A stretch of DNA of 32,000 bases, from positions 570,001 to 602,000 of the forward strand of contig CP065004.1 of the NCBI GenBank assembly GCA_016700135.1, given 5' to 3'. This DNA is from Candidatus Saccharimonadota bacterium (lineage in GTDB: Bacteria; Patescibacteriota; Microgenomatia; UBA1406; GWC2-37-13). The notes beneath the pieces are model-generated. The model had not been told where the DNA came from and did not search any database. It saw nothing but the letters and a program-made list of their open reading frames with translations. Made by a program: the position numbers and the translations under genes. Below, one piece after another: positions 2 to 29,434 of the stretch; position 1 is the first letter of the stretch, and each line of letters begins with the position of its first letter.

Positions 2-979
2 TGGGAACTGTCTTTACTGAGAGGTATGGGTGTGAAGGAGCTTCCCGTTTTTATTACGGAGACAGGCTGGAATGGTGATGTGATACCAAGAGACCAAATA
101 GCTGAAAATTTTCGCTATGCATATCAGCAGATCTGGCTGCGTGATGACCGGGTTGTTGCGGTGACGCCGTTTGTCCTGAATTATCAGGGAGAGCCTTTTC
201 TCAAATTTTCATGGGTACAGCTGAATAATGTTGGGGTATATCCCGAGTTTGAGACGGTACAAGATATGGAAAAACAACGAGGCAGGCCTGAAATCGACGA
301 AAAAGGCAGTATTGAGTTCGAACTTCCCCGGGAAATTGTCGAAAAATCAACGTATCATTTCCGTGTTGAGCTAAAAAATACCGGACAGGCAATCTGGAGT
401 GAAGAAAACGGGTATTCATTCATTTTACACGGTATCCCGAAAACACAGTATCTTGTGTCATCACTCGGTGAAATCAAACCGGATGATACCCGCCTTATTG
501 ATGTGTATTTCTCAACCGAGGAAGCAATCGGAGAATCACGGACGAAATTCGTTCTGAATAGAGATGACCAACCTGTTATTGAGAGCGGCAACTGGGATTA
601 TGAAGTAGTGCCGTTACCGTCACTTAGTATTGACGTATCGGTTTTTCCAAAACTTAAAACCACTGACGGTGATTTCGAAATACAGGTTTTTGACCAATAT
701 GAACAGATAGTTTTTAAGCAGAAAAATATCAAGGTGACTGACGGGGTAGGATATATCCCGAAAGTTGAGAACATTGCCTTAGGTGATACATACAGGGTTG
801 TATTGCTGAAAAAAAATTATCTTCCTCGACAGGAACATATCGTTTTCAAGAAGGGGAGTAATGAAATCGAATTTGAGAGGATGCTTCCGCTTGATTTTGA
901 TGGAGACGGTGCTTTTAGGTTCAAAGATATTCCTGCATTATTCAAAAACCTGAAGCTTCTCGGACTCTGGGCACCCTGA
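2..979 (+). CDS. 3' part of a secreted clan GH-A-like glycoside hydrolase (5' end off-window) with an Ig-like module and one dockerin-like Ca-loop
   Basis: The frame is open from position 2 with no upstream stop, so the gene is truncated by the window edge. 'PVFITETGW' resembles the nucleophile-Glu strand of TIM-barrel (clan A) glycosidases. The middle ('EFELPREIV..YHFRVELKNTGQAIW') looks like a beta-sandwich module. The C-terminal 'LDFDGDGAFRFKDIPALF' is an EF-hand/dockerin-like loop. Confidence 0.55.
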   Translation, partial: WELSLLRGMGVKELPVFITETGWNGDVIPRDQIAENFRYAYQQIWLRDDRVVAVTPFVLNYQGEPFLKFSWVQLNNVGVYPEFETVQDMEKQRGRPEIDEKGSIEFELPREIVEKSTYHFRVELKNTGQAIWSEENGYSFILHGIPKTQYLVSSLGEIKPDDTRLIDVYFSTEEAIGESRTKFVLNRDDQPVIESGNWDYEVVPLPSLSIDVSVFPKLKTTDGDFEIQVFDQYEQIVFKQKNIKVTDGVGYIPKVENIALGDTYRVVLLKKNYLPRQEHIVFKKGSNEIEFERMLPLDFDGDGAFRFKDIPALFKNLKLLGLWAP

Positions 980-1043: not shown

Positions 1044-1424
1044 ATAAATCCTTTACAAGGTTATAAAAGGGAAGCAAAAAAGTACCTAAAAACGCGTCGT
1101 TTAATGTAATATTAGAGTGTTTTTTTGAAATTTTGACCTTGGCCGGAAATATTAATTTTTCTTCTAAATTTGTATTTTTTATAAAAATATTATTGTTTTT
1201 ATTCAAGATAAATTAATTTTTTCTTGACGGGGGAGAGGTTTTAGAATTTTATGGATTTGAAGAGAGGGTCTGAGGAAAGGGGGACGAAGATGGAAAGGAC
1301 TACTCTATCAGCCTGCCTTCTAATTTAGCTTATTATTAAGCCAAAATGCGAATGATATTCTCTGGCATATCGACTAAAATAGTAACCCGTAAGGGTGAGT
1401 ATTATTATTGATTCGAAATCTATT

Positions 1425-2618
1425 ATGTCACGTGTCAAGCTTACTGAATTTAAAGCAAAACAACTCCTTTTTCAAGAGTTAGGCAAAAATTATAAAGGAA
1501 TTGCAGTGACGAAAGAAGGTAAGTCTTACCGATTCTCCTCTTCTCTGTCCCAACTCTCTCCTAAAAAAGAGTACGCGGTAAAAGTAGATCAAGGAATCAA
1601 GGGCCGTATGAAAAAAGGGCTGGTGGCACTAAACGTTAAGAAATCGGATCTGCAGAATATATGTAACCTTTTTGCTCAGAAAGGCTTTACCCGATACCTT
1701 GTGGAAGAAATGCTGCCTCACGAGTCAGCTCAGGAAAAGTATATCTCACTTGAAAGAACCCGTGACGGAATTCTGGTGCGGTTTGCTGCTCAGGGCGGAA
1801 TTGATATTGAAAGTAATAAAGATAAGGTTCGGACTGTTGTGATAACTCATAATGCTCCTCTACCTGTACTGAAAGATCTTGGATTGAAGGCAGAAGAGTT
1901 TGAGGTAATGCGGGAATTATTCGAGAAAAATTATATTTCTTTCATGGAAATAAATCCGTTGGTCATCACTGAGTCAGGGATGCATGCTCTTGATTTAGCT
2001 GTTGAAGTGGATAGTACCGCTGAGTTTTTTGTTAAAAACGGGTGGACAGGTCAGGATGTTGTTGCTGAACAAACCAAATCTGAAGAAGAACAAAAAGTAA
2101 AAGAGCTGAATAGTAAAAGTCAGGCTGCTTTATCGTTTACTCTGTTGAATCAGGACGGATCGATTTGGTGTCTATTATCGGGAGGCGGTGCCAGTATTAC
2201 TCTTGCTGATGAGATTTACAATCTTGGCTATGGACAAGAGCTCGGGAATTACGGGGAGTACTCCGGTAATCCGAATCAGGAGGAAACCTATCTGTATACT
2301 ACATATGTTCTGCAGTCCATGCTGAAAAGTAACAATAAGAAGTTAGTATTGATTATCGGCGGCGGAGTTGCAAATTTTACCGATATCCGAACTACCTTTA
2401 AAGGAGTCCTTCAGGCTCTTGAGGAATATAGAACCCTGCTAAAAAAGCGCAATGTAAAGTTGTATGTTCGCCGCGGAGGTCCTCATCAGGAGGAAGGACT
2501 CGCAATGATTGAAAAGTGGTCACGGGAAAATAATTTGTATGGACATGTTTCAGGTCCGGAACTTCCCCTTCATGAAATTGTACGTCTTGCCGTTAAAACA
2601 TTACCAAAAAAGAAATAA
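1425..2618 (+). CDS. aclB: ATP-citrate lyase beta subunit (succinyl-CoA synthetase beta-like, ATP-grasp)
   Basis: The N-terminus 'MSRVKLTEFKAKQLLF' parallels the ACLY N-terminus (MSAKAISEQTGKELLYKF). At ~397 aa it matches the size of two-subunit AclB (~400 aa). aclA follows 2 nt downstream. The ORF track starts at GTG 1395; ATG 1425 fits homologs better. Confidence 0.8.
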   Translation: MSRVKLTEFKAKQLLFQELGKNYKGIAVTKEGKSYRFSSSLSQLSPKKEYAVKVDQGIKGRMKKGLVALNVKKSDLQNICNLFAQKGFTRYLVEEMLPHESAQEKYISLERTRDGILVRFAAQGGIDIESNKDKVRTVVITHNAPLPVLKDLGLKAEEFEVMRELFEKNYISFMEINPLVITESGMHALDLAVEVDSTAEFFVKNGWTGQDVVAEQTKSEEEQKVKELNSKSQAALSFTLLNQDGSIWCLLSGGGASITLADEIYNLGYGQELGNYGEYSGNPNQEETYLYTTYVLQSMLKSNNKKLVLIIGGGVANFTDIRTTFKGVLQALEEYRTLLKKRNVKLYVRRGGPHQEEGLAMIEKWSRENNLYGHVSGPELPLHEIVRLAVKTLPKKK

Positions 2619-2620
2619 GT

Positions 2621-4408
2621 ATGCTTGACCTCACCAAACTCAGAAATACTGATCATTCAATCATTGCTCTCGGTTCACATCCCGGGATCTTACAGTCAAT
2701 GATGGATTTTGATTATCTGTCAGGAAAACGCGTGCCCGACTTAAAGGCAATTGTTGCATCGGGTAAAAAGTATTTACGACTGTTTTGGGGCAGTCAGGAA
2801 GAAATGATACCGGTGTACGGAACGCTAGAAGATGTCCCTGAAAATATCAGAAACGATACTTCTCTGTTCCTGAATTTAACATCTGGAAGAAGATCAATGT
2901 CCTCTACTCTTGAGATTCTTACGGCACTACCCAATCTCATGGGCGGCACTCTCTTTGCAGAAAATATTCCGGAAAAAAATACTCTCGGTATTTATAATCA
3001 TATAAAGAAAAATCAGTTTGTTGTCGGTCCGGCATCTGTCGGACTGCTGATCCCGGGACATCTTAAACTCGGCGCAATAGGCGGGACTCAGGCAAAACAA
3101 CTACTGGGGGCAAACCTTTTCGAACAAGGCAAGGTTGCTGTGTTTTCATCATCCGGAGGCATGACCAATGAACTTATAAATCTGGTCACCGGAGCCGGTA
3201 AAGGGATTTCATTCAGTCTGTCATTCGGTGGTGATAGGTTTCCGCTGCTCACTCCGATAGATGCCTTTAGGGCTGCAGAAAAGGATAAAAACACTGAGGC
3301 GATAGTTTACTTCGGAGAGCTCGGAGGCTATGATGAGTATGATTTGGTTGAACTTATCAAGGCAAAGAAGATTACAAAAAAAATCATAACATATATCGGC
3401 GGGACGATCAGTGAAATGTTTGAGACGCCTCCCCAGTTTGGACATGCCAAGGCGATGGCCGCAAGGGGAGAGGAAACAGCGCAGGCAAAAACAGCTGCGT
3501 TAAAAGCTGTCGGAGTACATGCAACAAGTTCCTTTACGGAGTTTATCAAACTTGTCCAGTCTTTACCTGATACGAAGATGAATTCTAATAATGCACGTGA
3601 AAAAATGGCAAAAGGAATGTCACAGAGGAAAGCATCTTACTTTATTAACGGAATATCACACGATAAAGACGGTTCCGTTGAAATTGTCGGAAAAGATTTA
3701 CTATCTCTGGCCACAGAACACTCGTATGGATATGTTGTTGGATCAATGCTGTTGGGAAGACAGCTTAAATCCAAAAATACGGCCGAGTTTATTGATCTGG
3801 TGATGAAGCTGCTGGTTGACCATGGCCCGTATGTCTCAGGGGCCGTTAACACGATGATTTCAGCCCGTGCAGGCAAAGATCTGGTATCTTCTGTCGTATC
3901 CGGTCTGTTGACAATAGGACCGCGTTTTGGAGGTGCAATCAACCAGGCAGCGAAACACTGGCTTGAAGGTGTCGATACGCAGGTGTCACCTTACGATTAT
4001 GTCGAATCAATAGCAAAAAAAAGAGGCATTATTTCCGGCATAGGGCATAAAAAGTATCGTGTAGATGCGCCGGATCCGCGCGCGTCCTTGATACTCGAGT
4101 TTACCAAACAGATAAAACAGACATCCTATACAGATTTTGCAAAAGGGGTAGAAAAAATAACTACCGCAAAAAAAGGGAATCTTATTTTGAATGTAGATGG
4201 CGCGATTGCGGCAGTGCTGCTTGATTTGTTATCAGAAAAGGAAGGCCTCACGGTGCGGGAGTTACAGGAATTGATAGATGCTGAGTTCTTTAATGCTTTT
4301 TTTGTACTGTCACGTGCCGTTGGATTTACCGCACATTACCTGGATCAAAAGCGAAGAGATGAAGGATTGTTTAGATTGTCACCAAATGAAGTCGGGTTGA
4401 CAAAGTAA
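2621..4408 (+). CDS. aclA: ATP-citrate lyase alpha subunit (CoA-binding/SCS-alpha-like domain fused to a citrate-synthase-like citryl-CoA lyase domain)
   Basis: The phosphohistidine loop is 'PQFGHAKAM' (His codon 3443-3445; canonical GHAGA). The citrate-synthase signature is 'GIGHKKYRVDAPDPRA' (His codon 4046-4048). The C-terminal 'AHYLDQKRRDEGLFRL' closely mirrors ACLY 'GHYLDQKRLKQGLYRH'. At 595 aa it is close to the ~600 aa of AclA. Confidence 0.85.
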   Translation: MLDLTKLRNTDHSIIALGSHPGILQSMMDFDYLSGKRVPDLKAIVASGKKYLRLFWGSQEEMIPVYGTLEDVPENIRNDTSLFLNLTSGRRSMSSTLEILTALPNLMGGTLFAENIPEKNTLGIYNHIKKNQFVVGPASVGLLIPGHLKLGAIGGTQAKQLLGANLFEQGKVAVFSSSGGMTNELINLVTGAGKGISFSLSFGGDRFPLLTPIDAFRAAEKDKNTEAIVYFGELGGYDEYDLVELIKAKKITKKIITYIGGTISEMFETPPQFGHAKAMAARGEETAQAKTAALKAVGVHATSSFTEFIKLVQSLPDTKMNSNNAREKMAKGMSQRKASYFINGISHDKDGSVEIVGKDLLSLATEHSYGYVVGSMLLGRQLKSKNTAEFIDLVMKLLVDHGPYVSGAVNTMISARAGKDLVSSVVSGLLTIGPRFGGAINQAAKHWLEGVDTQVSPYDYVESIAKKRGIISGIGHKKYRVDAPDPRASLILEFTKQIKQTSYTDFAKGVEKITTAKKGNLILNVDGAIAAVLLDLLSEKEGLTVRELQELIDAEFFNAFFVLSRAVGFTAHYLDQKRRDEGLFRLSPNEVGLTK

Positions 4409-4445
4409 CTCTCTGAGATTATAATTCCAGTATTACTGAAAAACT

Positions 4446-4706
4446 ATGACAAGACTTGAAGTATTATCAGACTGTTGGGGAGCGCCTCCAAAGGAATATC
4501 CCGAAGATCTTCCGAGGTGTAATTATTGTTATGACGGGACTTGTGGGTCAGTATTTATTCATGTCCCAGCTGAAATTTATTCGGCTGTTATGTTCGGAGA
4601 AATGACTGTCGACCAACTTATTAAAGAGGGTTATCTATCGTCTTCGCCTCCACCGTGTGAGAAAACAGGAGCCAAAAGAATTCATACATCAACGACACTG
4701 GGATAA
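4446..4706 (+). CDS. Hypothetical small Cys-containing protein (86 aa)
   Basis: ORF only, with no recognisable motif. It does not share the start-proximal -10 architecture of neighbouring genes: the nearest TATAAT is 4420-4425, 20 nt upstream. Confidence 0.3.
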   Translation: MTRLEVLSDCWGAPPKEYPEDLPRCNYCYDGTCGSVFIHVPAEIYSAVMFGEMTVDQLIKEGYLSSSPPPCEKTGAKRIHTSTTLG

Positions 4707-4710
4707 AGAA

Positions 4711-6534
4711 TTATTCGTCGTATTTAAATGCAAGGGCATTAATAATGAGGGTATAATCCTGTGAGTCGACGACACCGTCAAAATTGATATCTCCGCGTGC
4801 GACAATATCAGGATCATTTCTACCGACAAAATTTCTCACATACGCGATATCCACCGCATCAACGATTCCGTTTTGAAGCGGTAGGTCACCTGAAAGCAAA
4901 ATAATATTGGTAAAGTCCAGTGTATTATCACCTTTTTTAAAGGTTATGTTTGAGTCTTTACAAAGATATGTTCCGCTGATGTTTTCACTGGGTGAATTGA
5001 CACAAACACGCTTCTGTATATGTTTCGGTCCCTTTATCAGGAACGAATATTTTTTATTTAGATAAATTTTCTCGTAGTTTGTATTAGCTACATATGCACC
5101 GTCAGCTTGAGGTGAGAACTCAACTTGTTTTGTATTTACAACCTTATTTCCCTCGACAAGCTTAATCTGAATAGAAACCGGTGAAGAGTTTTTAGGCTGA
5201 GATGTAATTCCCTGTAATTTTACTCGGAAATTCACGCCTACTTTATTTGCGCTGTCATCCGGGGTTTCCGTAGGATTTTTGTCCGGTGGGAGTGATACCT
5301 CATCAGGAGCCGGCGTGGTCTCGGACGGGAATGGGGAGTTATTATAGGAAAAACAGTATAATCTGTGCTCTTCAGTACAGCTTACACCATCGTATGATAC
5401 CCATGATTTATCTGTTGCATATAATGCGCCAATAATTGCTTTTCCTTCGTTTGAAGTCCAATTATTACAGCTGTTTTTTGTATCAGGATAAGGGTTTGTT
5501 GTCATATGAATGAGAGTACCGGTCCATGCATTAAGATCAGTAACACCTGAAGCAGGTGTTACTTTTGTATCGCTGGAGTTAGTGTCTGAAATAGCAAACA
5601 GGTTTTTACCTGTTTCATCCACGCCGATAGCAGATTGGATGCAATTTGTATCATTTCCATTACATGATCTTAACCGTTCAACATTTTCTGCGAGTAATTC
5701 ACCGTTAATTGTATAAATTGGAACATCAGTATGGTTAAATCTGTCAAATGCATTGCGGGAATATGTTTCTTCGGAGTTTGTTGTACTCAAAAATGCAAAC
5801 CAGTCGCCGTCAAGACCGGCATCGGCAGCATGCTTCATACAGATTGCATCAGCCCCTTCCAAGCCACCTAGAGAACTTGCAGTATATGAATCTGATGTAG
5901 CAAATCCTTTGTAGGTGTAAGGGGTCCCTTGCCCTTTTTCAACCGTGATATCTACTTTTTTAGGTTTGGGACCATCAAGTAGAGGGAAATAATTTCCCGC
6001 AGGGCCGGCAATATCAAAATTCCAACCCTCTACGGTGTCTGACTCAAATGTAATCTTTCCTTTACCTGCATCCTTTGTTGCAAAGAAAAGTCGTGCTACA
6101 CAGAATGCATTTTTTGGAAGATTTTCATCCGTTTTTTTGGATACACGTGTCAATATAATAGTATTGACATTATCCTGTCCGGATACATCCCGCACGTCAA
6201 CGGTTTCTTCAAGACCGTTGCACGATTCTACGATCTCAGATTTTGTTGTAGATTTATCGAAAACCAAGAGATTTCGCGGATACCGAATGAGAACTGTTGC
6301 TGCAGAAAGGGGTTGTATGCTTGTAGCATGAACATCTACGGTGACTTGTTGTACCTGACTTGTAGTTATTATGGAAGGCGTGAAATAAAACTCAACATTG
6401 TTTTCAATAGCTGCCCGCGAGCGTTCACTATAATCATAGAAAAACCCCAGAATTCCGACAGCAATAGCAATCCCCACAACAAGGAGTAAGACTTTTTTCA
6501 TTTTCGGCAAGAATGATGAGTGTTGTGTTTCCAT
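4711..6534 (-). CDS. Membrane-anchored/secreted modular protein: cohesin-like module + DUF1554-like (C-type-lectin-fold) module + Pro/Thr linker + beta-sandwich + duplicated-loop dockerin
   Basis: The N-terminal signal anchor is 'KKVLLLVVGIAIAVGILGFF'. The cohesin-like pattern is 'VTVDVHATSIQPLSAATVLIRYPRNLLVFD ... ARLFFATKDAGKGKITFES'. 'LGGLEGADAICMKHAADAGLDGDWFAFLS' matches the DUF1554 pattern. The C-terminus has two dockerin repeats, 'GDLPLQNGIVDAVDIAYVRNFVG' and 'GDINFDGVVDSQDYTLIINALA'. Confidence 0.75.
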   Translation of the reverse strand: METQHSSFLPKMKKVLLLVVGIAIAVGILGFFYDYSERSRAAIENNVEFYFTPSIITTSQVQQVTVDVHATSIQPLSAATVLIRYPRNLLVFDKSTTKSEIVESCNGLEETVDVRDVSGQDNVNTIILTRVSKKTDENLPKNAFCVARLFFATKDAGKGKITFESDTVEGWNFDIAGPAGNYFPLLDGPKPKKVDITVEKGQGTPYTYKGFATSDSYTASSLGGLEGADAICMKHAADAGLDGDWFAFLSTTNSEETYSRNAFDRFNHTDVPIYTINGELLAENVERLRSCNGNDTNCIQSAIGVDETGKNLFAISDTNSSDTKVTPASGVTDLNAWTGTLIHMTTNPYPDTKNSCNNWTSNEGKAIIGALYATDKSWVSYDGVSCTEEHRLYCFSYNNSPFPSETTPAPDEVSLPPDKNPTETPDDSANKVGVNFRVKLQGITSQPKNSSPVSIQIKLVEGNKVVNTKQVEFSPQADGAYVANTNYEKIYLNKKYSFLIKGPKHIQKRVCVNSPSENISGTYLCKDSNITFKKGDNTLDFTNIILLSGDLPLQNGIVDAVDIAYVRNFVGRNDPDIVARGDINFDGVVDSQDYTLIINALAFKYDE

Positions 6535-6536
6535 AG

Positions 6537-7757
6537 TTATTCGTCACGCTGACGTACTTCTTGATTTGTTCTCCAAATTTCAAAATCCTGGAGTGTCACT
6601 TTTTGATCATTACTAAAATCGGCATCTTTTGTGTTTCTTGTTCGGGTAAATTCACTTTTCCATATATCAAAGTCATCATTGTTTATATGACTATCACAGT
6701 TCGCATCTCCAAGATTTTTTTTCGGACATTCGTCAACAGTTTCGGTTGGTGAGGTTGTAGTTGTTGTTCCCGGTGTAATAGTAGTGTTTTTCCCTCCAAC
6801 AGTGAATGTAAAGGAATCGTAGGTGAGGATAGATGCTGGAATTGTAGCCTGGTAGCCTTCGGCAACCGATACCCTAACCTTATAAATTCCTGCAGGGAGA
6901 GGAGGAAGGGTTAGCGTCTGGGAAAAAGTATTCGTACCGGATGCCAGTTCAAACTCTTGATTTATTGATCCTAATTCATCATTGGCACCTGTCAGAGTTA
7001 ACTTAGCAACAGGGCTTCTTAATTTTTTACCGGAAACTGTCAACGTTCCTGACTGTCCTTCATTTAATGTAGATGGGGATAAAGAAGCTTTGTTTTGATA
7101 TGTTACCCAAAGATCATATAATACTGATGTATATGCTTTGCCGTTTATCTGAGATGTAATGGTCGGAAGAGATGCGTTTTTGGGTGTAGCGATTGCTTTA
7201 TATGTGTAGTTTGTTCCTTCCGTAAGCCCGCTACACTTATAAGCTTTCCTCGATGTAATTTCAGAGTCAGGTACACAATCCGTGACTTTTGTATTTGTGT
7301 TAGCCCGGTATGCAGCAATTTTCGGTGCGTTATATGTCGTTGGCAATTCATCGACTTCATTCAGACTTACGCGTGTGTAGTAGGCTGGTGCAGTTGGCGG
7401 ATCTCTAATAACCTGACAGCAGCTCGGAACAGTCGCGTTTCCATCGTAGATATCATCCATACAAGCGCGTTGATATACCAGGTTTTCTGTTGCACAGATT
7501 CCTAAAGCGTGCACAGGATCAGGAATAAGATTATCAATCAAAATACTGGACATAGAACAATTTAATCCACCTGAACAGGCAGTGTCTCCGTATTGGGGAT
7601 TACAAATTTGGCCGCAAGTCCGATTGGGAGGGACGGAAGTGGGAATTGGTGAGGCTGATGATTGAGCTTTAACAGGTGCGGGCATCTCTGCATGGGTCAG
7701 AAGGAGTAATGTTATGAAAAAAAATCCGAGTATGAGAAATAAATAATGCCTTTGCAT
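6537..7757 (-). CDS. Secreted Cys-rich protein with Ig-like middle region, Thr-rich linker and C-terminal dockerin
   Basis: The signal peptide is 'MQRHYLFLILGFFFITLLLLTHA'. A Cys-rich N-domain follows. The C-terminus carries two dockerin-like repeats, 'GDANCDSHINNDDFDIWKSEF' and 'ADFSNDQKVTLQDFEIWRTN'. I prefer ATG 7757 over the track's TTG 7796 because of the -10 box at 7768-7776. The stop lies 2 nt before the start of the next gene. Confidence 0.75.
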   Translation of the reverse strand: MQRHYLFLILGFFFITLLLLTHAEMPAPVKAQSSASPIPTSVPPNRTCGQICNPQYGDTACSGGLNCSMSSILIDNLIPDPVHALGICATENLVYQRACMDDIYDGNATVPSCCQVIRDPPTAPAYYTRVSLNEVDELPTTYNAPKIAAYRANTNTKVTDCVPDSEITSRKAYKCSGLTEGTNYTYKAIATPKNASLPTITSQINGKAYTSVLYDLWVTYQNKASLSPSTLNEGQSGTLTVSGKKLRSPVAKLTLTGANDELGSINQEFELASGTNTFSQTLTLPPLPAGIYKVRVSVAEGYQATIPASILTYDSFTFTVGGKNTTITPGTTTTTSPTETVDECPKKNLGDANCDSHINNDDFDIWKSEFTRTRNTKDADFSNDQKVTLQDFEIWRTNQEVRQRDE

Positions 7758-7767
7758 GTATGCTTTT

Positions 7768-7776
7768 ACTATAGCA
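7768..7776 (-). promoter_or_regulatory. Extended -10 promoter TGCTATAGT, 10 nt upstream of ATG 7757
   Basis: The minus strand reads gacTTGCTATAGTaaaagcatacATG. No GGAGG-like motif lies in between. Confidence 0.5.
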
Positions 7777-7801
7777 AGTCTTTCTGTAAACAGCAAGATA
7801 C

Positions 7802-7810
7802 TGTTATAAT
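7802..7810 (+). promoter_or_regulatory. Extended -10 promoter TGTTATAAT, 12 nt upstream of tgt ATG 7823
   Basis: The plus strand reads acTGTTATAATacttattccaatATG, with no Shine-Dalgarno. Confidence 0.5.
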
Positions 7811-7822
7811 ACTTATTCCAAT

Positions 7823-8998
7823 ATGTTCACCTTTGATATAACTGCCAGATTAGAAGGTACTAAAGCCCGATCAGGCATATTCCATACTCCTCACAGAGAG
7901 ATTCAGACACCTGAACTTGCTATTGTGGCAACTGAAGGAGAAATTCGTTCGGTCCCGAGGGAGCTGTGGAAGGATCTTCCGAACCAGTATTTTATCGTTA
8001 ACACATACCATACGCATACAAAAAAGCTTGTCGACACAATTCAAGCACAAGGCGGAGTGCACGGCTATATGGGGCTTGGAGATCGCGCATTCGCGACAGA
8101 TAGCGGAGGATTTCAAGTATTCTCGCTTGGTTTTGGTCAAAAGCACAATATCGGTAAGTTGGCTCGGGATTTTGCGCAAGATACTGCTTTTGCTGACGAT
8201 GATGAGAGTCCGCTTACAATTACCGAAGAAGGGGTATCATTTACTTTCGACGGTAAAGAAGTACGGTTGACCCCCGAATCCTCTATGGATATACAACACC
8301 AATTAGGAGCCGACATCATGTTTGCATTTGATGAGTGTACGTCGCCTCTTAATAGTGAAGAATATACCCGTCAATCTATGGAGCGAACGCATCGGTGGCT
8401 GAAAAGATGTATCAGTGCCCATCGTGAGCATGAAGAAAAGCAGGCATTATTCGGGATTGTACAGGGAGGAGAGTATCGATCGCTTCGTGAAGAATCCGCA
8501 CGGGTTGTGGGATCGATGGATGTCCCCGGATTCGGTTTGGGAGGAAGTCTGGGAAAATTCAAAGAAGACGTACATGCGATTCTCGACTGGATTATTCCTA
8601 TCCTGCCCGACGAGAAACCGCGTCACTTTTTGGGTATCGGACAGATACGTGACATTTTTGAAAGTGTTGAGCGAGGGGTTGATCTTTTTGATTGTGTCAT
8701 CCCGACAAGAGAAGCGAGACATCGTATGCTGTATACCGAACACGGAAGAGTTAGTATCAGAAAGATGCGGAATATTGATGAAGTCCCGGATAAAAACTGT
8801 TCCTGCTATGCATGCAAAAATGACAAAATTACCTATCCGAAACTGTGGGAACTTTTCCTTGCGCGGGATCCAAGGGCAGCTATGTATGCGACGATCCATA
8901 ATGTCTGGTTCTATGCTCAGTTGACCCAAAAGATACGGAATGCAATCGGGAATAAGACTTTTATAGATCTCAAAGAAGAAGTTTATAAGTATTATTAG
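7823..8998 (+). CDS. tgt: tRNA-guanine transglycosylase (queuine tRNA-ribosyltransferase)
   Basis: 'ATDSGGFQVFSL' holds the catalytic Asp motif and 'LGIGQIRDI' the nucleophile Asp region. The Zn site is 'CSCYACKN...IHN'. Length is 391 aa. Confidence 0.95.
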   Translation: MFTFDITARLEGTKARSGIFHTPHREIQTPELAIVATEGEIRSVPRELWKDLPNQYFIVNTYHTHTKKLVDTIQAQGGVHGYMGLGDRAFATDSGGFQVFSLGFGQKHNIGKLARDFAQDTAFADDDESPLTITEEGVSFTFDGKEVRLTPESSMDIQHQLGADIMFAFDECTSPLNSEEYTRQSMERTHRWLKRCISAHREHEEKQALFGIVQGGEYRSLREESARVVGSMDVPGFGLGGSLGKFKEDVHAILDWIIPILPDEKPRHFLGIGQIRDIFESVERGVDLFDCVIPTREARHRMLYTEHGRVSIRKMRNIDEVPDKNCSCYACKNDKITYPKLWELFLARDPRAAMYATIHNVWFYAQLTQKIRNAIGNKTFIDLKEEVYKYY

Positions 8999-9076
8999 AA
9001 CAAAGTAATCTTATAAAGTCTTCTTATTTCTTCTTCTGTATTTGGTCCAAGTAAAGGATAGGTAAGAAAGTATAGT

Positions 9077-9751
9077 TTATTGATCAAATTTCTTTAATTC
9101 ATTGATCCGTCGTTCCAAATCAGCACCTGCCTTTGTCAAATAACTTCCGATACATATAATATCCGGTTGATATGATTGTGAGGAAACGGTCGGTAGGGAA
9201 TTACTATTGACACCGCCATCGATCAGAATTTCGCCATTATAGCCCTGTGCTCTAAGCTGTTCTATTTTTTGGAGCATTTGGGGCAAAAAAGGTGACCCTT
9301 GAAAGCCGGGATTCACAGTCATAATTTGAATGCTGGGAACGTAGTCCAGATCATAATTGCGTGCCAAATTATCAATGCTGACATCGGGGAATACATCCAA
9401 GCCTATAGAAAAAGAGTAAGAGCTGTTCATCTCCCCAATGTTTACTTCATGTGAGGCATTGATGAGAACGGTATTCACCTGAATATTTTCTTCCTGAATT
9501 TTTACAATCTTTTCCAATTCCGCTTCATAATCTGAAACCATAAGATGAAAATCAAAGGTAATATTCGGAAAAATAGTTACCTGATTTGATGAAAATACGT
9601 CCAGCATTTCATTAATCTGGACTGTCGTATTGGGGACTAATTGTCCGTCTGCAATATCAAGCTGAATCCGGTCATAGTATCTCTGAAAAGTGTTCATCTG
9701 TGAAATGAATTCTTCAATGGTTGTGGTGAGAAGTGTGGGAACGGTTTTCAT
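9077..9751 (-). CDS. rpe: Ribulose-phosphate 3-epimerase family protein (divergent)
   Basis: 'FDFHLMV', 'IMTVNPGFQGSPFLP' and 'ILIDGGVN' align to Rpe motifs. The first metal-ligand motif reads 'IQLDIADG' (Gln) instead of 'HxDxxDG'. Confidence 0.7.
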   Translation of the reverse strand: MKTVPTLLTTTIEEFISQMNTFQRYYDRIQLDIADGQLVPNTTVQINEMLDVFSSNQVTIFPNITFDFHLMVSDYEAELEKIVKIQEENIQVNTVLINASHEVNIGEMNSSYSFSIGLDVFPDVSIDNLARNYDLDYVPSIQIMTVNPGFQGSPFLPQMLQKIEQLRAQGYNGEILIDGGVNSNSLPTVSSQSYQPDIICIGSYLTKAGADLERRINELKKFDQ

Positions 9752-12115: not shown

Positions 12116-13624
12116 TTACGGAGTCGGAGTATTCGTCGGGGTGTTGGTCGGAGTCGGCGTGTATGTCGGAGTCGGTGTGGAAGTCGGACATACTGCTGAG
12201 CCTGTTGACCAGGATGACACATGGTTCGTTTCGCCGTAGCCGTCTTCAGCACGGACCCGACAGGTAATAGGCATTCCGTCTCCCGGCATTGCCGCATTGT
12301 AACAGGGAAGATTCTGATAATGGTCGGTTGTGGTGGTATTACAGTACCAGAATGAGGTGCTGTTGAAAGCTCCATCATCAGTACACTGGAGGAAATAATG
12401 ATCAAATTTATTGCTACATCTTGGATCTTTCTGGTAGTCAAAGTCCCATATCCATGAAGTACAGCTATTACCCTGGACATAATCGATATTACAATCAGGG
12501 TCATCTCCGGTGATTCTGGGGCAAGAGGAACTGCTATATATCCAGTCTGTTGCATTCTCTGAACCTCCGTCTTCAGTCTCAGCGCGTACTCGACAGAATA
12601 CAGATTGACCGGGTGCCGGTGACGGAGCTGTCGCACAGGGAAGTGATAGTTGATTGGTTGTCATGGTCTCATTACAGTACCAGGTTGCAGGATCACTTGA
12701 TCCCCAGCTGGTACTTTTACACTGAACAAAATACTTAGTATAAGTGTCTTCGCATGTCTGGCTTTGTGTCAAAACATCATTCCAGATCCATGAGGAACAG
12801 CTGTTCGGCTGAAGGTAGCTCAATGAACAGGCATTTTTTGTCGCTGCACTTACCGGTGTTGCTGTGGGTGAAGTGGAGGGAGCCGCCGTCGGAGAAGTAT
12901 TTGCACCGATCAGACATTTGACATAATCCTGAGTTGTGCACTGGGTGCCCAATGATTTCAAAATAGAAGTACAATCCGTCGTTGCCTGACAGCTTGAGCC
13001 AGTTGTCGGAGGATAGGTTGTGATACTTCCTGACGGTGTTGCTTCAGGAGTCGGATAATAAGTCACTGATCCTGAAGGTGAAGCGGTCATAGTTGGTGTC
13101 GGTACAATTGAGGGAGACGAGGTGGCCGTCTTTGTCGGAGACAATGTTGCAGAACCTGTTCCGACTTCAATAGACGGAAGGGGAACGTCGGGATCTACTT
13201 CCGTTCCTTCTCCTGCCGGAGTGGTAAAGGTCCACGGTGAACCGCCGTCATCATATACATTTTCTCCGCTTCGGATACGGAAGTAATACGTTGTATTGGG
13301 TTGAAGTCCGCCGATTTGTATTGTATGTTCGGTTGCTTCCAGATCACCGAAGGAGACTTCTGTCATAGCATCCGGAGAAGTCCCGTACTCTACAACAGCG
13401 ATTGTTTCCTTGCCTGTTTGAAAAGTGACTTGCGCACTCTGACTGTCTACCGGTGAAGCGCTTACGTTTGAAGGAGCTTCTTCATTTGCTTCTGTTGCCG
13501 TGCCCTGAATCAGAAAAAAGGTCATAATAATAATTGCCAATAAGAGAGGAATCCCGACGGAAGCGGCGATAAGCATGATCTTTCGTTGAGATAGTTTATT
13601 TTTTAGTACGGTTGCAACTGGCAT
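12116..13624 (-). CDS. Membrane-anchored surface protein: FN3-like domain, Pro/Thr/Ser linkers, 4-Cys motif and two tandem ~102-aa 8-Cys modules
   Basis: The signal anchor is 'IMLIAASVGIPLLLAIIIMTFFLI'. The FN3-like stretch is 'VTFQTGKETIAVVEYGTSPD...LQPNTTYYFRI'. Repeats C266-C368 and C378-C479 have superimposable Cys spacing. The tail is 'TPTPTYTPTPTNTPTNTPTP'. Confidence 0.8.
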   Translation of the reverse strand: MPVATVLKNKLSQRKIMLIAASVGIPLLLAIIIMTFFLIQGTATEANEEAPSNVSASPVDSQSAQVTFQTGKETIAVVEYGTSPDAMTEVSFGDLEATEHTIQIGGLQPNTTYYFRIRSGENVYDDGGSPWTFTTPAGEGTEVDPDVPLPSIEVGTGSATLSPTKTATSSPSIVPTPTMTASPSGSVTYYPTPEATPSGSITTYPPTTGSSCQATTDCTSILKSLGTQCTTQDYVKCLIGANTSPTAAPSTSPTATPVSAATKNACSLSYLQPNSCSSWIWNDVLTQSQTCEDTYTKYFVQCKSTSWGSSDPATWYCNETMTTNQLSLPCATAPSPAPGQSVFCRVRAETEDGGSENATDWIYSSSSCPRITGDDPDCNIDYVQGNSCTSWIWDFDYQKDPRCSNKFDHYFLQCTDDGAFNSTSFWYCNTTTTDHYQNLPCYNAAMPGDGMPITCRVRAEDGYGETNHVSSWSTGSAVCPTSTPTPTYTPTPTNTPTNTPTP

Positions 13625-13626
13625 AA

Positions 13627-14235
13627 TTATTTTGTTTTAAGCTTAGTCATCAGTTTGCGGTATCTCATAAACAATACTGCTGTCAGAATAATCATCAACA
13701 GTGATACGATAACGTATCCCCAAGTCGGCTGCACTCCGTTGCCCACTGAGACTCCCAAGACTTCCTGACGATCATTAATTACTACGGAAGTGGAATGTGA
13801 ACGGGTACTGGTACAGTTGATAATATTTGAAAGCTCTTCATCATTACGGATAATTTGTGATGTTTGAGACATAAAAGGAACGCAGTCAAAACGCAGTTCA
13901 GTAGAGCCTTCCTTTTGAGCCTGAAAGTATATGGTCGCGATTTTCCCGTTTGTAACCTGTTTCAGATCAGCAGACGGATTGATTGCATATATATATAAAC
14001 TTCCCGGTTGAATAACTTTTGCATCCACACTTTGGAATAATTCACCCTTTTTCAGTTCAGGGTTCTGCGGAGATGCAATACTCAGGATAGAGGGATCATA
14101 TGAGATATAAATATCAGTTGAAATTACCGGGTCCGCTCCACTGTAAATCATCACATCCACGGGGATTATATCGCCTGCAGAAGCCGAAATGTTTACCGGT
14201 TCAAAAGAAAAGGAGGCAATTGCTGATTGTGACAT
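13627..14235 (-). CDS. Cohesin-like domain protein with C-terminal TM anchor and basic tail, no N-terminal signal peptide
   Basis: The cohesin-like pattern is 'FEPVNISASAGDIIPVDVMIYSGADPVISTDIYISYDPSILSI ... GKIATIYFQAQKEGSTELRF'. The C-terminus is 'VQPTWGYVIVSLLMIILTAVLFMRYRKLMTKLKTK'. The stop lies 2 nt before the start of the next gene. Confidence 0.7.
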   Translation of the reverse strand: MSQSAIASFSFEPVNISASAGDIIPVDVMIYSGADPVISTDIYISYDPSILSIASPQNPELKKGELFQSVDAKVIQPGSLYIYAINPSADLKQVTNGKIATIYFQAQKEGSTELRFDCVPFMSQTSQIIRNDEELSNIINCTSTRSHSTSVVINDRQEVLGVSVGNGVQPTWGYVIVSLLMIILTAVLFMRYRKLMTKLKTK

Positions 14236-17254: not shown

Positions 17255-17762
17255 GAAATTGTGAAACAGAAACTAATTCTTCATTTTTTCCTCTTCTTGC
17301 TTATTCTCTTCATGGGCATTGGTGTAAAAGCCTCAACTCAAGGTATGGCAATTATGCCTCCTGATTCGGATCCTTCAGGAATATTCGGTGAGGATCATTA
17401 TTATTCAGTTATTTTTCGCGGTAACGGCGATACTGTCGTAAATCTGAAGGCTATCTTTACAAATACGGAAGAGGCAACGGTATCTGCAGTAACGCTGCGA
17501 GCTCCCAAAGGTCCGTTAGAAGACATCGTGGCGTATCAGATTATCAGAGACCGCAGATGTCTTCGGTACGAAACAGTCAGGATAATGCCAACTCCCGGTG
17601 TTGTTGAAGATCGTTATGATCCCCCCAAATGCATACAGTATGAGAACCCGGACTTTTATGGATATTATTATTCCGGCAATACTAAGTATAAGAAGGCAAT
17701 AGTGAAAACAGAGGGGGATGTGATAACTCTTACCCTTCCTGAAGGTGTTTCTCCCGAATCAA

Positions 17763-17769
17763 ATGCCAG
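17763..17769. repeat. Target-site duplication ATGCCAG (left copy)
   Basis: An identical 7-mer directly abuts both IS ends (17763-17769 and 18485-18491). Confidence 0.8.
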
Positions 17770-17784
17770 GGCTCTAGACTAGCA
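17770..17784. repeat. IS terminal inverted repeat (left)
   Basis: GGCTCTAGACTAGCA is the exact reverse complement of 18470-18484. Confidence 0.85.
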
Positions 17785-18448
17785 CATTAACAATTTGTAA
17801 TAGTTCATTGTAAAGGATCGATGGGGATTTGCTCCATCTCCATTCACACTCTTTCAAGTGTAATGGAAAGTTTTTCTTTACACCATTGAACTTAACGAGA
17901 CGTCTTTTACAAAAGGACCAGAATGACTCTATGCCATTGATATGGACCCCTTTTGTATTTGAGAACTCATTTTTCTTGTGATTGATTCTCAAATGTTTGT
18001 CATACCCGACATCAACAAGTCCGTTGTATCCGCTCCACGAATCTGAATATACAGTACTGTTCAAGTCAATCTTTCCCTTCATAACAGCATGTAGCGTTCT
18101 TCTTTTACAGTTTGGAATGATACGAGTAAATACACGTCCTTGACGCTCATATATCCCAAATACTACCTGCTTAAATGACGTCCCACGACCTCTTTTACTT
18201 GACTTGCCTCTCATCCTTCGAGGTCCAAAGTATGATTCATCAATTTCTATCTCACCACCAACATATCGTTGCATCTGGTGCACTTGGTGATGATATATGA
18301 GTTGACGAATATTATTGTAATATTTGTTGACTGTATTGCGGTTGAGACCCAAAATACCAGAGGTCTGTGTAGCACTCAGATCGTGTGCAAAACACCATAG
18401 TATCTTTTTTCTCTTGTATTTTGATATCGGCCTATTGTTACAAACCAT
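17774..18448 (-). CDS. IS1595/ISXO2-like DDE transposase (224 aa)
   Basis: The N-terminal HTH is 'LSATQTSGILGLNRNTVNKYY'. The DDE-type region is 'EIDESYFG...VYSDSWSGY...HINGIESFWSFCKRRL', typical of the DDE_Tnp_IS1595 family. Confidence 0.85.
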   Translation of the reverse strand: MVCNNRPISKYKRKKILWCFAHDLSATQTSGILGLNRNTVNKYYNNIRQLIYHHQVHQMQRYVGGEIEIDESYFGPRRMRGKSSKRGRGTSFKQVVFGIYERQGRVFTRIIPNCKRRTLHAVMKGKIDLNSTVYSDSWSGYNGLVDVGYDKHLRINHKKNEFSNTKGVHINGIESFWSFCKRRLVKFNGVKKNFPLHLKECEWRWSKSPSILYNELLQIVNVLV

Positions 18449-18454
18449 ACCTCT

Positions 18455-18463
18455 AGTTTAGCA
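18455..18463 (-). promoter_or_regulatory. Extended -10 TGCTAAACT inside the IS, 6 nt upstream of transposase ATG 18448
   Basis: The minus strand reads gtagTGCTAAACTagaggtATG. Confidence 0.4.
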
Positions 18464-18469
18464 CTACTC

Positions 18470-18484
18470 TGCTAGTCTAGAGCC
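18470..18484. repeat. IS terminal inverted repeat (right)
   Basis: TGCTAGTCTAGAGCC. Confidence 0.85.
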
Positions 18485-18491
18485 ATGCCAG
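18485..18491. repeat. Target-site duplication ATGCCAG (right copy)
   Basis: See the left copy. Confidence 0.8.
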
Positions 18492-19406
18492 TTACATACT
18501 CTATTATCGTTCCAAAGCATATACTCAAAAGGATTTTGCCGGATCCTATTCATATATCTTTGAAACTCTCAAAACGGAATCACCGATCCGGACACTTCAG
18601 GTCGGAATTTCAACAGATATTGATCTGCGGCTGAAAGACGCGTCGTCTGATGTCAATTACGCCGATTCGTCATTAACAGAGCTTAAAGCTGCTCCGACTT
18701 TGGGTTCGGCAGGTATGTCAAACCAGGCGTTTGACCGATATTACCAGCAGATAGGTCAGGGGATGATTGTTGAACATGCTAGTTCCCTGCAGCCTCTTGA
18801 TACTTTTACAGTAGAAGGTTCTTATGCAAAATCACTCTGGCAGCTTCACGCAAAAACATTAGTTATTGTTGTCGTGATAGTGCTTGTCGTACTTGCCGGT
18901 ATCGGATATGGTTTATTCAGATTGTTTAAGCATCTCCGAAGAAAGTCGACAACTGTAGCCCCCGGCCCTCATTCCGGACTGCATACGGTTTTATGGATGG
19001 TCGGCAGCAGCTTCGGATCTTCCATTCTGACTGCCGGGTACACGGTTTTTCTGTTTATTCTCATGAATTTTGTAAGCGGATCTTTTTATATCGGTTATGA
19101 GTACAATTTGCTCGTTTCGCTTTTTGTAATGATTTTGTCTCTTGCGGTTTATCCGCTCTGCCTTTTTGTTCCGGCTATTGTAATGGGGGTCAAGAAAGGT
19201 CTTTGGTGGGGCATAGGTACCTTTGCAATGACAATTGCCTGGCTGTTAATATATCTCTTTGTTGTGTTCGGCTTTCTTGTAATGCTCAGAATGAACAGCT
19301 CATATCCCCGTCCCATGCCATACATCTACGGGACCACTGATAGTGTTGTCCCCGAAACTTCCGACGCAAAATAAGAACGAATTCTTCTGCATTTTTTAAC
19401 GGGATT

Positions 19407-29425: not shown

Positions 29426-29434
29426 ATTCTAGCA
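29426..29434 (-). promoter_or_regulatory. Extended -10 promoter TGCTAGAAT, 6 nt upstream of dut ATG 29419
   Basis: The minus strand reads ttctgTGCTAGAATgtgtctATG. Confidence 0.5.

Follow-up and report, generated by a model that had tools for sequence, protein, structure and literature searches.

A two-gene cohesin–dockerin operon as candidate component of a non-cellulosomal surface display system in Microgenomates-like Patescibacteria

The two-gene operon at positions 4711..7757 (minus strand) of the 32,000-nucleotide stretch of DNA analyzed here (the window) probably, on balance, encodes two parts of a non-cellulosomal, two-tier cohesin–dockerin surface display system of Microgenomates-like Patescibacteria. 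The first gene, p419 (6537..7757, minus strand), encodes a secreted cargo protein of 406 residues when read from the ATG at 7757, the end coordinate used in an earlier note on this DNA, which opens the hydrophobic signal MQRHYLFLILGFFFITLLLL; an alternative TTG start at 7796 gives an ORF of 419 residues (6537-7796). The second gene, p607 (4711..6534, minus strand, ATG start), encodes a 607-residue adaptor-like protein composed of a signal/anchor segment, a cohesin, a lectin-like module, a beta-sandwich and a dockerin. Only 2 nt separate the stop of the first ORF from the start of the second, and their adjacency is kept in all orthologous loci (L001-L008), in agreement with the operon that the earlier note had described; the four loop strings it quoted are all found in the ORF translations. 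The small, non-clostridial genome it had assumed is likewise borne out by an orthologue on a 940,728-bp contig and by the enolase, whose relatives are named Microgenomates, Woesebacteria, Levyibacteriota, Roizmanbacteria and Patescibacteria. The window contains exactly two cohesins and two dockerins, two different types of each, and purifying selection acts on all parts for which dS is measurable (omega 0.02-0.26).

Structurally, p607 has the layout of an adaptor scaffoldin, as had been proposed: a lectin-like module lies between its cohesin and its dockerin, and Pfam, profile and structure searches found no catalytic domain in it. Its N-terminus (6436..6492, minus strand) reads as KMKK followed by ∼19 hydrophobic residues and RSRA↓A, a feature that recurs in 27 of 35 family representatives and could serve as a signal anchor or be cleaved off as a signal peptide, consistent with the signal/anchor noted earlier. 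The adjoining domain, CohN (residues 45-200; 5935..6402, minus strand), is a divergent cohesin identified by profile and by AlphaFold2, with a conserved Cys105/Cys145 pair and the motif LPxGxFCFG. Pfam Cohesin (PF00963) gives no match at E≤1 among the seven p607 orthologues; it does match 9 of 34 remote CohN relatives (best E 1.1e-8). All eight PDB matches of the 34-sequence CohN profile (A6) are cohesins (best 3l8q_A, E 6e-4), the A6 HMM matches p202, the second cohesin of the window, at E 3.6e-9, and hhalign pairs CohN with the Pfam-positive p202 cohesin family at 91.9% probability (E 7e-7). The AlphaFold2 model of CohN is confident and all-beta (pLDDT 95.5, pTM 0.89), and a Foldseek search of the PDB returns cohesins of types I, II and III as its top 39 matches (E 1.9e-7; TM 0.5-0.68 over the cohesin matches). 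CohN is thus predicted to have the cohesin-type beta-sandwich (jelly-roll) fold, and the cohesin-like N-terminus suspected earlier is upheld by profile, hhalign and structure model together.

The middle of p607 (5335..5922, minus strand) is an endostatin-like/DUF1554 module, probably with a C-type-lectin-related fold, assigned by HMM and family profile. The DUF1554 assignment made in the earlier note holds in part: the module falls just below the cut-off of Pfam DUF1554 (PF07588; 26.6 against 27.5 bits) and further below that of Pfam Endostatin (20.3 against 29.4 bits), and its family profile aligns with endostatin structures over the whole domain (1koe_A, E 1.6e-8, residues 18-172). The ‘lec’ HMM built for it matches only L008 and L009 among 79 metagenomic loci, and the module is an insertion particular to the adaptor of this clade. 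It is followed by a beta-sandwich (4900..5241, minus strand, from profile and alignment) and a C-terminal dockerin, Doc607 (4714..4899, minus strand, from Pfam and alignment A9), which in this family always travel together as a single unit. Doc607 scores 28.8 bits against Pfam Dockerin_1 over residues 555-601, above the curated cut-off of this model (PF00404, 22.9 bits), which matches all seven p607 orthologues. Type I dockerins comprise two tandem F-hand repeats, with a helix after each loop and D-x-[DN]-x-[DN]-x-x-x-[DN]-x-x-D as the pattern of calcium ligands. The second loop of Doc607 is canonical (DINFDGVVDSQD). The first is atypical (GDLPLQNGIVDAVD); as DLPLQNGIVDAVD, it is one residue too long and has no canonical calcium ligand at position 1 or position 3, and it is invariant across relatives, as is the GDxPxQ motif in alignment A9. 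The model of full-length p607 is poor (pLDDT 39.9) and gives no confident structure for the endostatin-like module.

The cargo protein p419 belongs to a very small family, with only 8 relatives among 5.8 billion clusters. Its N-terminus (7665..7757, minus strand), MQRH followed by 16 hydrophobic residues, is by sequence and alignment A2 a putative signal peptide with a conserved V-x-A↓QS cleavage-like site. The body matches nothing known: no family match was found for the Cys-rich module with its eight conserved cysteines (7407..7625, minus strand, from alignment), and the beta-rich middle region (6792..7379, minus strand) has no significant family match, with weak PPC/fn3/CBM_4_9-type hints in some orthologues only. 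The C-terminal dockerin, Doc419 (6561..6734, minus strand, from Pfam and subfamily profile A8), represents a Cys-stapled subfamily with the consensus CPxK..GDANCD..DFxIW..EF...ADFNxDxKVxxxDFEIWR. By eye, both of its loops, DANCDSHINNDD and DFSNDQKVTLQD, fit the calcium pattern, with S/T replacing N/D. Taken singly, p419 stays below the Dockerin_1 cut-off (13.2 bits, E 0.11); the Pfam model matches all eight members of the family (best E 2e-4), and a protein with the same type of tail (P0019) reaches 23.2 bits. The 16-sequence A8 profile spans both repeats in its matches to solved type I dockerins, best 5nrm_B (E 1.4e-5) and CelS (1.6e-4). Both proteins therefore end in dockerins, as had been claimed, p607 above the Pfam cut-off and p419 at the level of the subfamily profile only.

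The second cohesin of the window, p202 (13627..14235, minus strand), is a single Pfam Cohesin domain (32.5 bits, cut-off 24.1) with a C-terminal TM segment and a basic tail, under purifying selection (dN/dS 0.04-0.08). Downstream lies p502 (12116..13624, minus strand; HMM), with a TM segment, an FN3/Pur_ac_phosph_N domain and two Cys-rich repeats. Both genes are ∼6 kb away from the operon, with housekeeping genes between. By sequence comparison, p202 is homologous to the small LPxSG-anchored cohesins found at the end of the gene cluster in relatives, and p502 to the FN3 protein that comes after the small cohesin in 26 loci. The relatives' small cohesins carry a signal peptide in 33 of 33 cases and a C-terminal hydrophobic segment in 29 of 33, and those with a complete C-terminus end in LP[KQER][ST]G, a TM segment and a basic tail, a sortase-type signal. 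In this lineage no signal peptide was found on p202 (a stop codon lies four codons upstream of its ATG), and QPTWG stands where the relatives have LPxSG, so that p202 has lost both elements and can only tentatively be assigned an external anchoring role. The anchored cohesin of the earlier note thus stands as a cohesin and not as one with a sortase-type anchor. The ORF at 2-979, described there as a glycosidase fragment with a dockerin-like loop, fared less well: neither dockerin nor beta-sandwich was matched by Pfam or home-made profiles, and its full-length orthologues match GH5/Glyco_hydro_cc below threshold only (E 0.01-0.04), which leaves a weak glycosidase-like similarity.

Genomic neighborhood analysis lends independent support to the proposed hierarchical assembly, through a gene order conserved in 79 metagenomic loci retrieved with the sandwich–dockerin unit as query. 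On one strand, these loci encode, in this order, a Doc419-type cargo protein, an adaptor running from CohN to sandwich-Doc607, a ∼200-residue weak cohesin, a p202-type cohesin and an FN3 protein. This gene cluster is conserved and so far undescribed, and looks like a non-cellulolytic counterpart of the modular surface scaffold of cellulosomes. Of the 28 tagged genes with CohN, 26 have a Doc419-type gene immediately upstream, against 1 of the 12 without it (Fisher p 3.8e-7, for loci that are related and so not independent, counted with narrow home-made HMMs, that of CohN iterated twice). The sandwich-Doc607 tag also occurs on a GH5 protein (L026, 103 bits) and on an M4 protease, and tagged genes adjoin the small cohesin at L059, L061 and L075, an arrangement that would fit that cohesin being the receptor of the tag. 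Mean identity is high for Doc607 (92%), the sandwich (85%) and the p202 cohesin (84%), compared with 72% for Doc419 and 67% for CohN. The cargo slot, flanked by conserved tgt and ATP-citrate-lyase-like genes, appears variable, holding lectin/Cys-rich proteins, S8 proteases, RHS, CBM or DUF2341 proteins across relatives, and the cargo/adaptor cassette is allelically replaced between strains 95% identical elsewhere. The expectation of lectin-like and Cys-rich cargo in place of cellulases holds for the window; relatives bear the same two tags on S8 and M4 proteases, a GH5, CBMs and an RHS protein.

In the proposed system, p607 would be exported through its N-terminal hydrophobic signal, then either tethered by it or released, and would present CohN, the endostatin-like lectin-fold module and the sandwich–dockerin unit. 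The secreted p419 would contribute its Cys-rich body and the second, Cys-stapled dockerin type; Doc419 would plug into CohN, and the sandwich–dockerin unit of p607 into a p202-type small cohesin bound to the cell, both presumably in a calcium-dependent manner. Each of these pairings is inferred from gene neighborhood and conservation. The resulting complex would expose lectin-like and Cys-rich binding modules at the surface, and its likely role, a guess drawn from the module types, would be to adhere to glycans carried by a host cell or substrate, or to recognize them.

The alternative that survives best, though we regard it as unlikely, is a self-assembling polymer, in which CohN of one p607 would bind the dockerin of another to give head-to-tail chains or a lattice, the relatives' CohN-Doc419 proteins would bind themselves, and the dockerin of p419 would go to the small cohesin. 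It would account for the union of cohesin and dockerin in one chain, seen in at least 19 of the 35 family representatives, including proteins with one or two CohN copies and a Doc419-type tail, and for a p202 that may not be exported in the window; it also has a precedent in R. bromii Amy4, which binds its own dockerin and for which multimerization was proposed, with similar pairs elsewhere (PMC4611034). However, the upstream Doc419 gene follows the presence of CohN and not the tag itself, Doc419 and Doc607 are clearly different subfamilies, and the tag occurs on enzymes without CohN beside small cohesins, which fits a separate receptor better than self-assembly.

Slightly more doubtful is the view that the folds are present without the partnership, the dockerins being calcium-binding stabilizers or wall/glycan-binding tails, CohN a structural beta-sandwich spacer, and the proteins independent adhesins that share an operon. 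The failure of Pfam to detect CohN and the degenerate first loop of Doc607 agree with it, and no cohesin partner is known for many of the dockerin proteins of organisms that do not produce cellulosomes. A cultivated Saccharibacterium also has an essential dockerin-domain envelope protein for which no cohesin partner is named (PMC10633639). Such a view sits poorly with the tight, repeated clustering of two cohesin and two dockerin types across diverse loci, with the strong conservation of Doc607 and the p202 cohesin, and with the sortase-type anchor of the relatives' small cohesins, which matches known anchoring scaffoldins. A true polysaccharide-degrading cellulosome, with the operon as scaffold for glycoside hydrolases such as that at 2-979, is very improbable: despite the weak GH5-like similarity of that ORF, the GH5 on the same tag at L026 and CBM96 or CBM_4_9 in some relatives' cargo, no dockerin-tagged enzyme was found within the window, the GH-like 2-979 included, each scaffold protein has one cohesin and not an enzyme-integrating array, and the relatives' cargo consists mainly of proteases, RHS and modules of no assigned family.

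Beyond this operon, the two-tier display reading leads to a tentative generalization, possible rather than probable: that Patescibacteria, at least the Microgenomates-like clade, possess a dedicated modular surface display made of a cell-bound small cohesin, a universal sandwich–dockerin tag and single-cohesin adaptors recruiting Cys-stapled dockerins, with a swappable cargo cassette exchanged by recombination between near-identical strains. Little is known of how the ultra-small CPR/Patescibacteria gain hold of other cells and exploit them, and annotation is lacking for most of their envelope proteins. If the generalization is true, the display system would be an attachment/attack toolkit setting the host or substrate range of these episymbionts. 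The cassette replacement between otherwise near-identical strains hints that the cassette determines host range or antigenicity. The locus suggests that the ‘plug-and-socket’ principle of the cellulosome has been reused for a compact two-tier display with interchangeable cargo. Two module subfamilies missed by standard HMMs, the Pfam-invisible CohN and the sub-threshold Cys-stapled dockerin, now have names, the conserved five-part gene cluster provides a searchable signature, and the four cohesin–dockerin module combinations with calcium are directly testable pairings; orthogonal small pairs of this kind could be useful as protein-engineering parts.

Among known systems, the R. flavefaciens cellulosome (base ScaE; adaptors ScaB/ScaC/ScaH) resembles the proposed one in its small single-cohesin base with an LPXTG-type signal, found here in relatives, and in its cohesin-plus-dockerin adaptors and two orthogonal pairs, which here are inferred from genes. 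Its cohesins 5lxv, 4n2o and 2zf9 are among the structural matches of CohN, the roles of its adaptor scaffoldins have been described (PMC12484212), and precedents exist both for proteins that join a cohesin to a dockerin and for single-cohesin bases anchored by sortase (PMC4611034, PMC12484212). Unlike R. flavefaciens, with its cohesin arrays and hydrolase battery, the present system has one cohesin per adaptor, lectin-like and Cys-rich cargo (in relatives proteases, RHS and CBMs), a CohN beyond Pfam detection with a conserved Cys pair, a Cys-stapled cargo dockerin, a base cohesin that in the window bears neither signal peptide nor sortase motif, and a ∼0.94-Mb Patescibacteria-like host genome.

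The R. bromii amylosome, in which Amy4 unites a single cohesin with a single dockerin and the Sca2 anchor is ScaE-like (PMC4611034), shares the non-cellulolytic use of these modules, one of each per protein; Amy4, however, is an enzyme that binds its own dockerin, whereas p607 is non-catalytic and its neighborhood points to a separate cargo dockerin. Archaeoglobus fulgidus, whose pair has been cited as likely multimerizing (PMC4611034), likewise has a cohesin and a dockerin without being a cellulose degrader, and the structure of its cohesin (2xdh) counts among the CohN fold matches (E 4.6e-6). That case is archaeal, with no assigned function. The A. fulgidus proteins are not known to be accompanied by a conserved multi-gene cluster of the present kind.

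SEML1_0315 of Southlakia epibionticum (Saccharibacteria), for which host-glycan targeting was speculated by its authors, is also a dockerin-bearing cell-envelope protein of a Patescibacterium, and an essential one; compared here by description only, it differs in that no cohesin partner or cluster is described (PMC10633639). The middle module of p607 recalls both endostatin (collagen XVIII/XV NC1), through its whole-domain alignment, and bacterial DUF1554 proteins (Leptospira lipoproteins), differing in its sub-cut-off DUF1554 score and in being embedded in a cohesin–dockerin protein. Finally, the type II X-module–dockerin dyads, such as the C. thermocellum CipA XDoc that binds SdbA-type cohesins on the cell and thereby attaches its scaffold, have complexes (5m0y, 4u3s, 2b59) among the CohN fold matches and, like p607, a beta-sandwich directly fused to and conserved with the dockerin, a likeness at the level of module arrangement.

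Two ORFs, both on the minus strand, occupy positions 4711-7796. The first encodes p419 (419 aa from a TTG at 7796), for which an alternative ATG at 7757, the end coordinate given in the earlier note, opens the hydrophobic leader MQRHYLFLILGFFFITLLLL; the second encodes p607 (4711-6534, 607 aa), which starts 2 bases downstream of the TAA stop of p419. This tightly coupled gene pair confirms the two-gene operon of dockerin-tagged exported proteins that the note had described, and the four loop strings it quoted are all found in the two translations. A sigma-70-like promoter (TTGCTG-17-TATAGT) spotted by eye 5' of the ATG at 7757 scored below the scanner threshold and is not claimed. The neighbors are housekeeping genes, among them a two-subunit ATP-citrate-lyase-like (ACL-like) pair, tgt, rpe, an M20 peptidase, enolase, a class A PBP, dprA and thyA. 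Convergent with p607 lies an 86-aa Cys-rich ORF (4446-4706, plus strand) with no family match, which is an annotated gene in two related loci (L004/L005) and missing from three others (L001-L003). Close orthologues of p607 are rare, only 7 among 5.8 billion protein clusters, and one sits on a single 940,728-bp contig (GCA_002329205.1). The nearest named relatives of the window's enolase belong to Microgenomates, Woesebacteria, Levyibacteriota, Roizmanbacteria and 'Patescibacteria group' (65-68% identity); together with that contig, they bear out the assignment to a small, non-clostridial genome.

Both operon proteins end in predicted dockerins, p607 by the Pfam cut-off and p419 at the level of a subfamily profile. 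Residues 555-601 of p607 match Dockerin_1 at 28.8 bits (curated cut-off 22.9), as do the tails of all seven orthologues (7/7). Loop 2, DINFDGVVDSQD, is canonical; in loop 1, GDLPLQNGIVDAVD, positions 1 and 3 do not carry the usual ligands, yet the loop is invariant even in distant relatives. The p419 sequence alone reaches only 13.2 bits against Dockerin_1, a model matched by 8/8 members of its family (best E 2e-4). Sixteen p419-type tails gathered from relatives share the consensus CPxK..GDANCD..DFxIW..EF...ADFNxDxKVxxxDFEIWR, including a conserved Cys pair, and their profile aligns to solved type I dockerins over both repeats (5nrm_B, E 1.4e-5; CelS, 1.6e-4). From these Pfam and profile matches, the tails of p607 and p419 (Doc607 and Doc419) are assigned to the dockerin family as two distinct subtypes.

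The N-terminal module of p607, CohN, is identified by profile matches and predicted structure as a divergent cohesin. No cohesin match was returned by Pfam or NCBIfam for this region, nor by Pfam for its orthologues, and a profile built from the seven orthologues had too little depth (6% hhalign probability, irrelevant PDB matches). Sufficient depth came only from searching 1.84 billion representatives exhaustively with HMMER, which yielded 36 relatives. Most of these are 200-450 aa long and have the module immediately after an N-terminal hydrophobic segment; three contain two tandem copies. Among 34 CohN relatives, nine match Pfam Cohesin (9/34) and 16 match Dockerin_1 (16/34). The 34-sequence alignment retrieves only cohesins from the PDB (8/8, best E 6e-4) and aligns with the family of p202, the window's Pfam-positive cohesin, at 91.9% probability (E 7e-7); an HMM derived from it recovers p202 itself at E 3.6e-9. 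Structurally, the AlphaFold2 model from this alignment is all-beta (pLDDT 95.5, pTM 0.89), and its top 39 Foldseek matches in the PDB are all cohesins, drawn from types I, II and III, one being the non-cellulosomal cohesin of Archaeoglobus. CohN is further distinguished by a family-specific Cys pair and an LPxGxFCFG motif. Thus, the cohesin-like signature noticed earlier in this region holds at the level of profile and predicted fold, though Pfam is blank.

The middle module of p607 falls just short of the Pfam DUF1554 cut-off (26.6 versus 27.5 bits). Because its family profile aligns with endostatin structures over the full domain (E 1.6e-8), the earlier 'lectin-fold' label appears reasonable. 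Residues 432-545, predicted as beta in a low-confidence full-length model, form the predicted sandwich that is the constant companion of the dockerin. That full-length AlphaFold2 prediction (7 sequences, pLDDT 39.9) gave no usable model of the lectin, sandwich or dockerin modules. Two orthologues, P0005 and P0006, carry a ∼60-aa insertion between the lectin module and the sandwich (columns ∼430-500 of the orthologue alignment A1); the inserted stretch contains four Cys and one more motif resembling a calcium loop, ADVNKDGKVNSDDINLI. The body of p419, an 8-Cys module with beta-rich regions, has no family match and is present, among related loci, in L008 only.

Genomic neighborhood analysis of 79 loci, fetched out of 186 sandwich-dockerin relatives in JGI metagenomes and scanned with HMMs built here, reveals a recurrent same-strand cluster. 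It comprises, in order, at least one protein with a p419-type dockerin, a CohN...sandwich-dockerin protein, a ∼200-aa protein with weak cohesin similarity, a p202-type small cohesin, and a ∼215-aa FN3/Pur_ac_phosph_N protein homologous to the N-terminal part of p502, the FN3 protein of the window. Of the distinct tagged genes whose flanks are long enough, 26/28 with CohN have a p419-type dockerin gene directly upstream, versus 1/12 without CohN (Fisher p 3.8e-7, an overstatement of independence since the loci are related). All small cohesins of these loci carry a signal peptide (33/33) and 29/33 a C-terminal hydrophobic segment; complete C-termini read LP[KQER][ST]G, hydrophobic stretch, basic tail, a predicted wall-anchoring signal of the sortase type, as in anchoring scaffoldins (PMC12484212). 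In 17 loci the adaptor still has the ACL-like gene after it (65-91% identity), and in 7 loci tgt comes ahead of the cluster; the cargo gene between these flanks differs among loci, a position that appears to behave as a variable cassette. A GH5 and an M4 protease also bear the sandwich-dockerin tag, and the p419-type tag is found on S8 proteases, an RHS protein, and CBM96, CBM_4_9 and DUF2341 proteins. With RHS, S8, M4 and GH5 proteins each bearing one or other of the two tags, the same display system would in other lineages carry cargo of a degradative or toxin-like kind. Examples of tagged RHS-repeat, S8 subtilase, M4 thermolysin-like and GH5 cargo lie at L013:321-2768, L014:7602-9725, L029:4242-6236, L059:9097-11547 and L026:5720-8545.

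The module identities, export signals, operon and conserved cluster observed here can be assembled into a putative surface complex. A small cell-bound cohesin would receive the sandwich-dockerin tag, and adaptors such as p607 would use CohN to recruit the product of the gene immediately upstream through its p419-type dockerin. The mean identities agree with this pairing, Doc607 (92%), the sandwich (85%) and the p202 cohesin (84%) forming a conserved set versus the jointly varying CohN (67%) and Doc419 (72%). All parts are under purifying selection wherever dS is measurable. For the adaptor-scaffoldin layout attributed to p607, the support comes from architecture and gene context. In this lineage the complex would expose an endostatin-like lectin-fold module together with a Cys-rich protein, which makes adhesion or recognition its most plausible function.

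Strain comparison points to allelic exchange at the operon. In L006, the closest relative, the DNA is ∼95% identical to the window on both flanks and only 60-78% identical over ∼3000-9400, a segment centered on the operon that reaches into the ends of the adjacent ACL-like gene and tgt. Values of dS are 0.24-0.34 for p202 and p502 and saturated for p607 and p419. Local positive selection was rejected as the cause on the saturated dS and low omega, which instead indicate an imported allele, acquired through allelic replacement by recombination.

Some features of the window's lineage fit the proposed assembly poorly. The cluster is split there: p202-p502 (14235-12116) lies apart from p419-p607 (7796-4711), with four housekeeping genes between. 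The p202 protein (13627-14235, minus strand) had been described as an anchored cohesin-like protein. Its Pfam cohesin, TM segment and very basic tail stand; its signal peptide is lost (a stop lies four codons 5' of the ATG, and the N-terminus aligns to the mature N-terminus of relatives), and QPTWG replaces LPxSG. It is strongly constrained (omega 0.04-0.08), and its export route and topology are left unexplained by the assembly. With its own N-terminal hydrophobic segment, p607 may not need to depend on p202 for tethering. p502 (12116-13624, minus strand) has an N-terminal TM, an FN3/purple-acid-phosphatase-N domain, Thr/Pro-rich linkers and two Cys-rich repeats (∼110 aa each, CxxxYxQxNSCxSWIW...) with no family match; its relatives consist only of the ∼215-aa FN3 part.

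The ORF at 2-979 (plus strand), proposed earlier as a glycosidase fragment with a dockerin-like loop, is the C-terminal part of a ∼563-aa protein (full length at L006:15730-17421). It is without a dockerin or sandwich match to Pfam or the HMMs built here, and its full-length orthologues show clan-A glycosidase (GH5/Glyco_hydro_cc) similarity at sub-threshold level only. A by-eye impression of a p607-type sandwich and half dockerin at its C-terminus was unsupported by the HMMs and dropped. The protein has an ETGW motif, a weak CARDB match and a single DFDGDG loop near its end, and in 6 loci the gene keeps its place next to the ACL-like pair. The ACL-like pair itself (1395-4408, plus strand; Citrate_bind at 193 bits with Citrate_synth_N, and Ligase_CoA with Citrate_synt) is unusual for the central carbon metabolism of a CPR bacterium; it adjoins the operon in 17 metagenomic loci, and an archaeal-type PEP carboxylase lies nearby in relatives. 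Elsewhere, an IS1595-family (ISXO2-like) transposase (17774-18448, minus strand, within 17261-19374) is flanked by ORFs at 17261-17782 and 18700-19374, both without a family match. tRNA and Rfam scans of the whole window gave no match, including in a ∼1-kb AT-rich stretch (29426-30466, GC ∼33%) with no ORF >66 aa.

The literature searched yielded no account of a cohesin-dockerin cluster in CPR, an absence that is not proof; in a cultivated Saccharibacterium, a dockerin-domain envelope protein is essential (PMC10633639). The known systems that come nearest are the R. flavefaciens cellulosome, with its sortase-anchored ScaE and adaptors, and the R. bromii amylosome, whose Amy4 bears both a cohesin and a dockerin (PMC4611034). 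Unlike these systems, the one described here combines single-cohesin adaptors, non-glycosidase cargo and two unrecognized module subfamilies in a Patescibacteria host.
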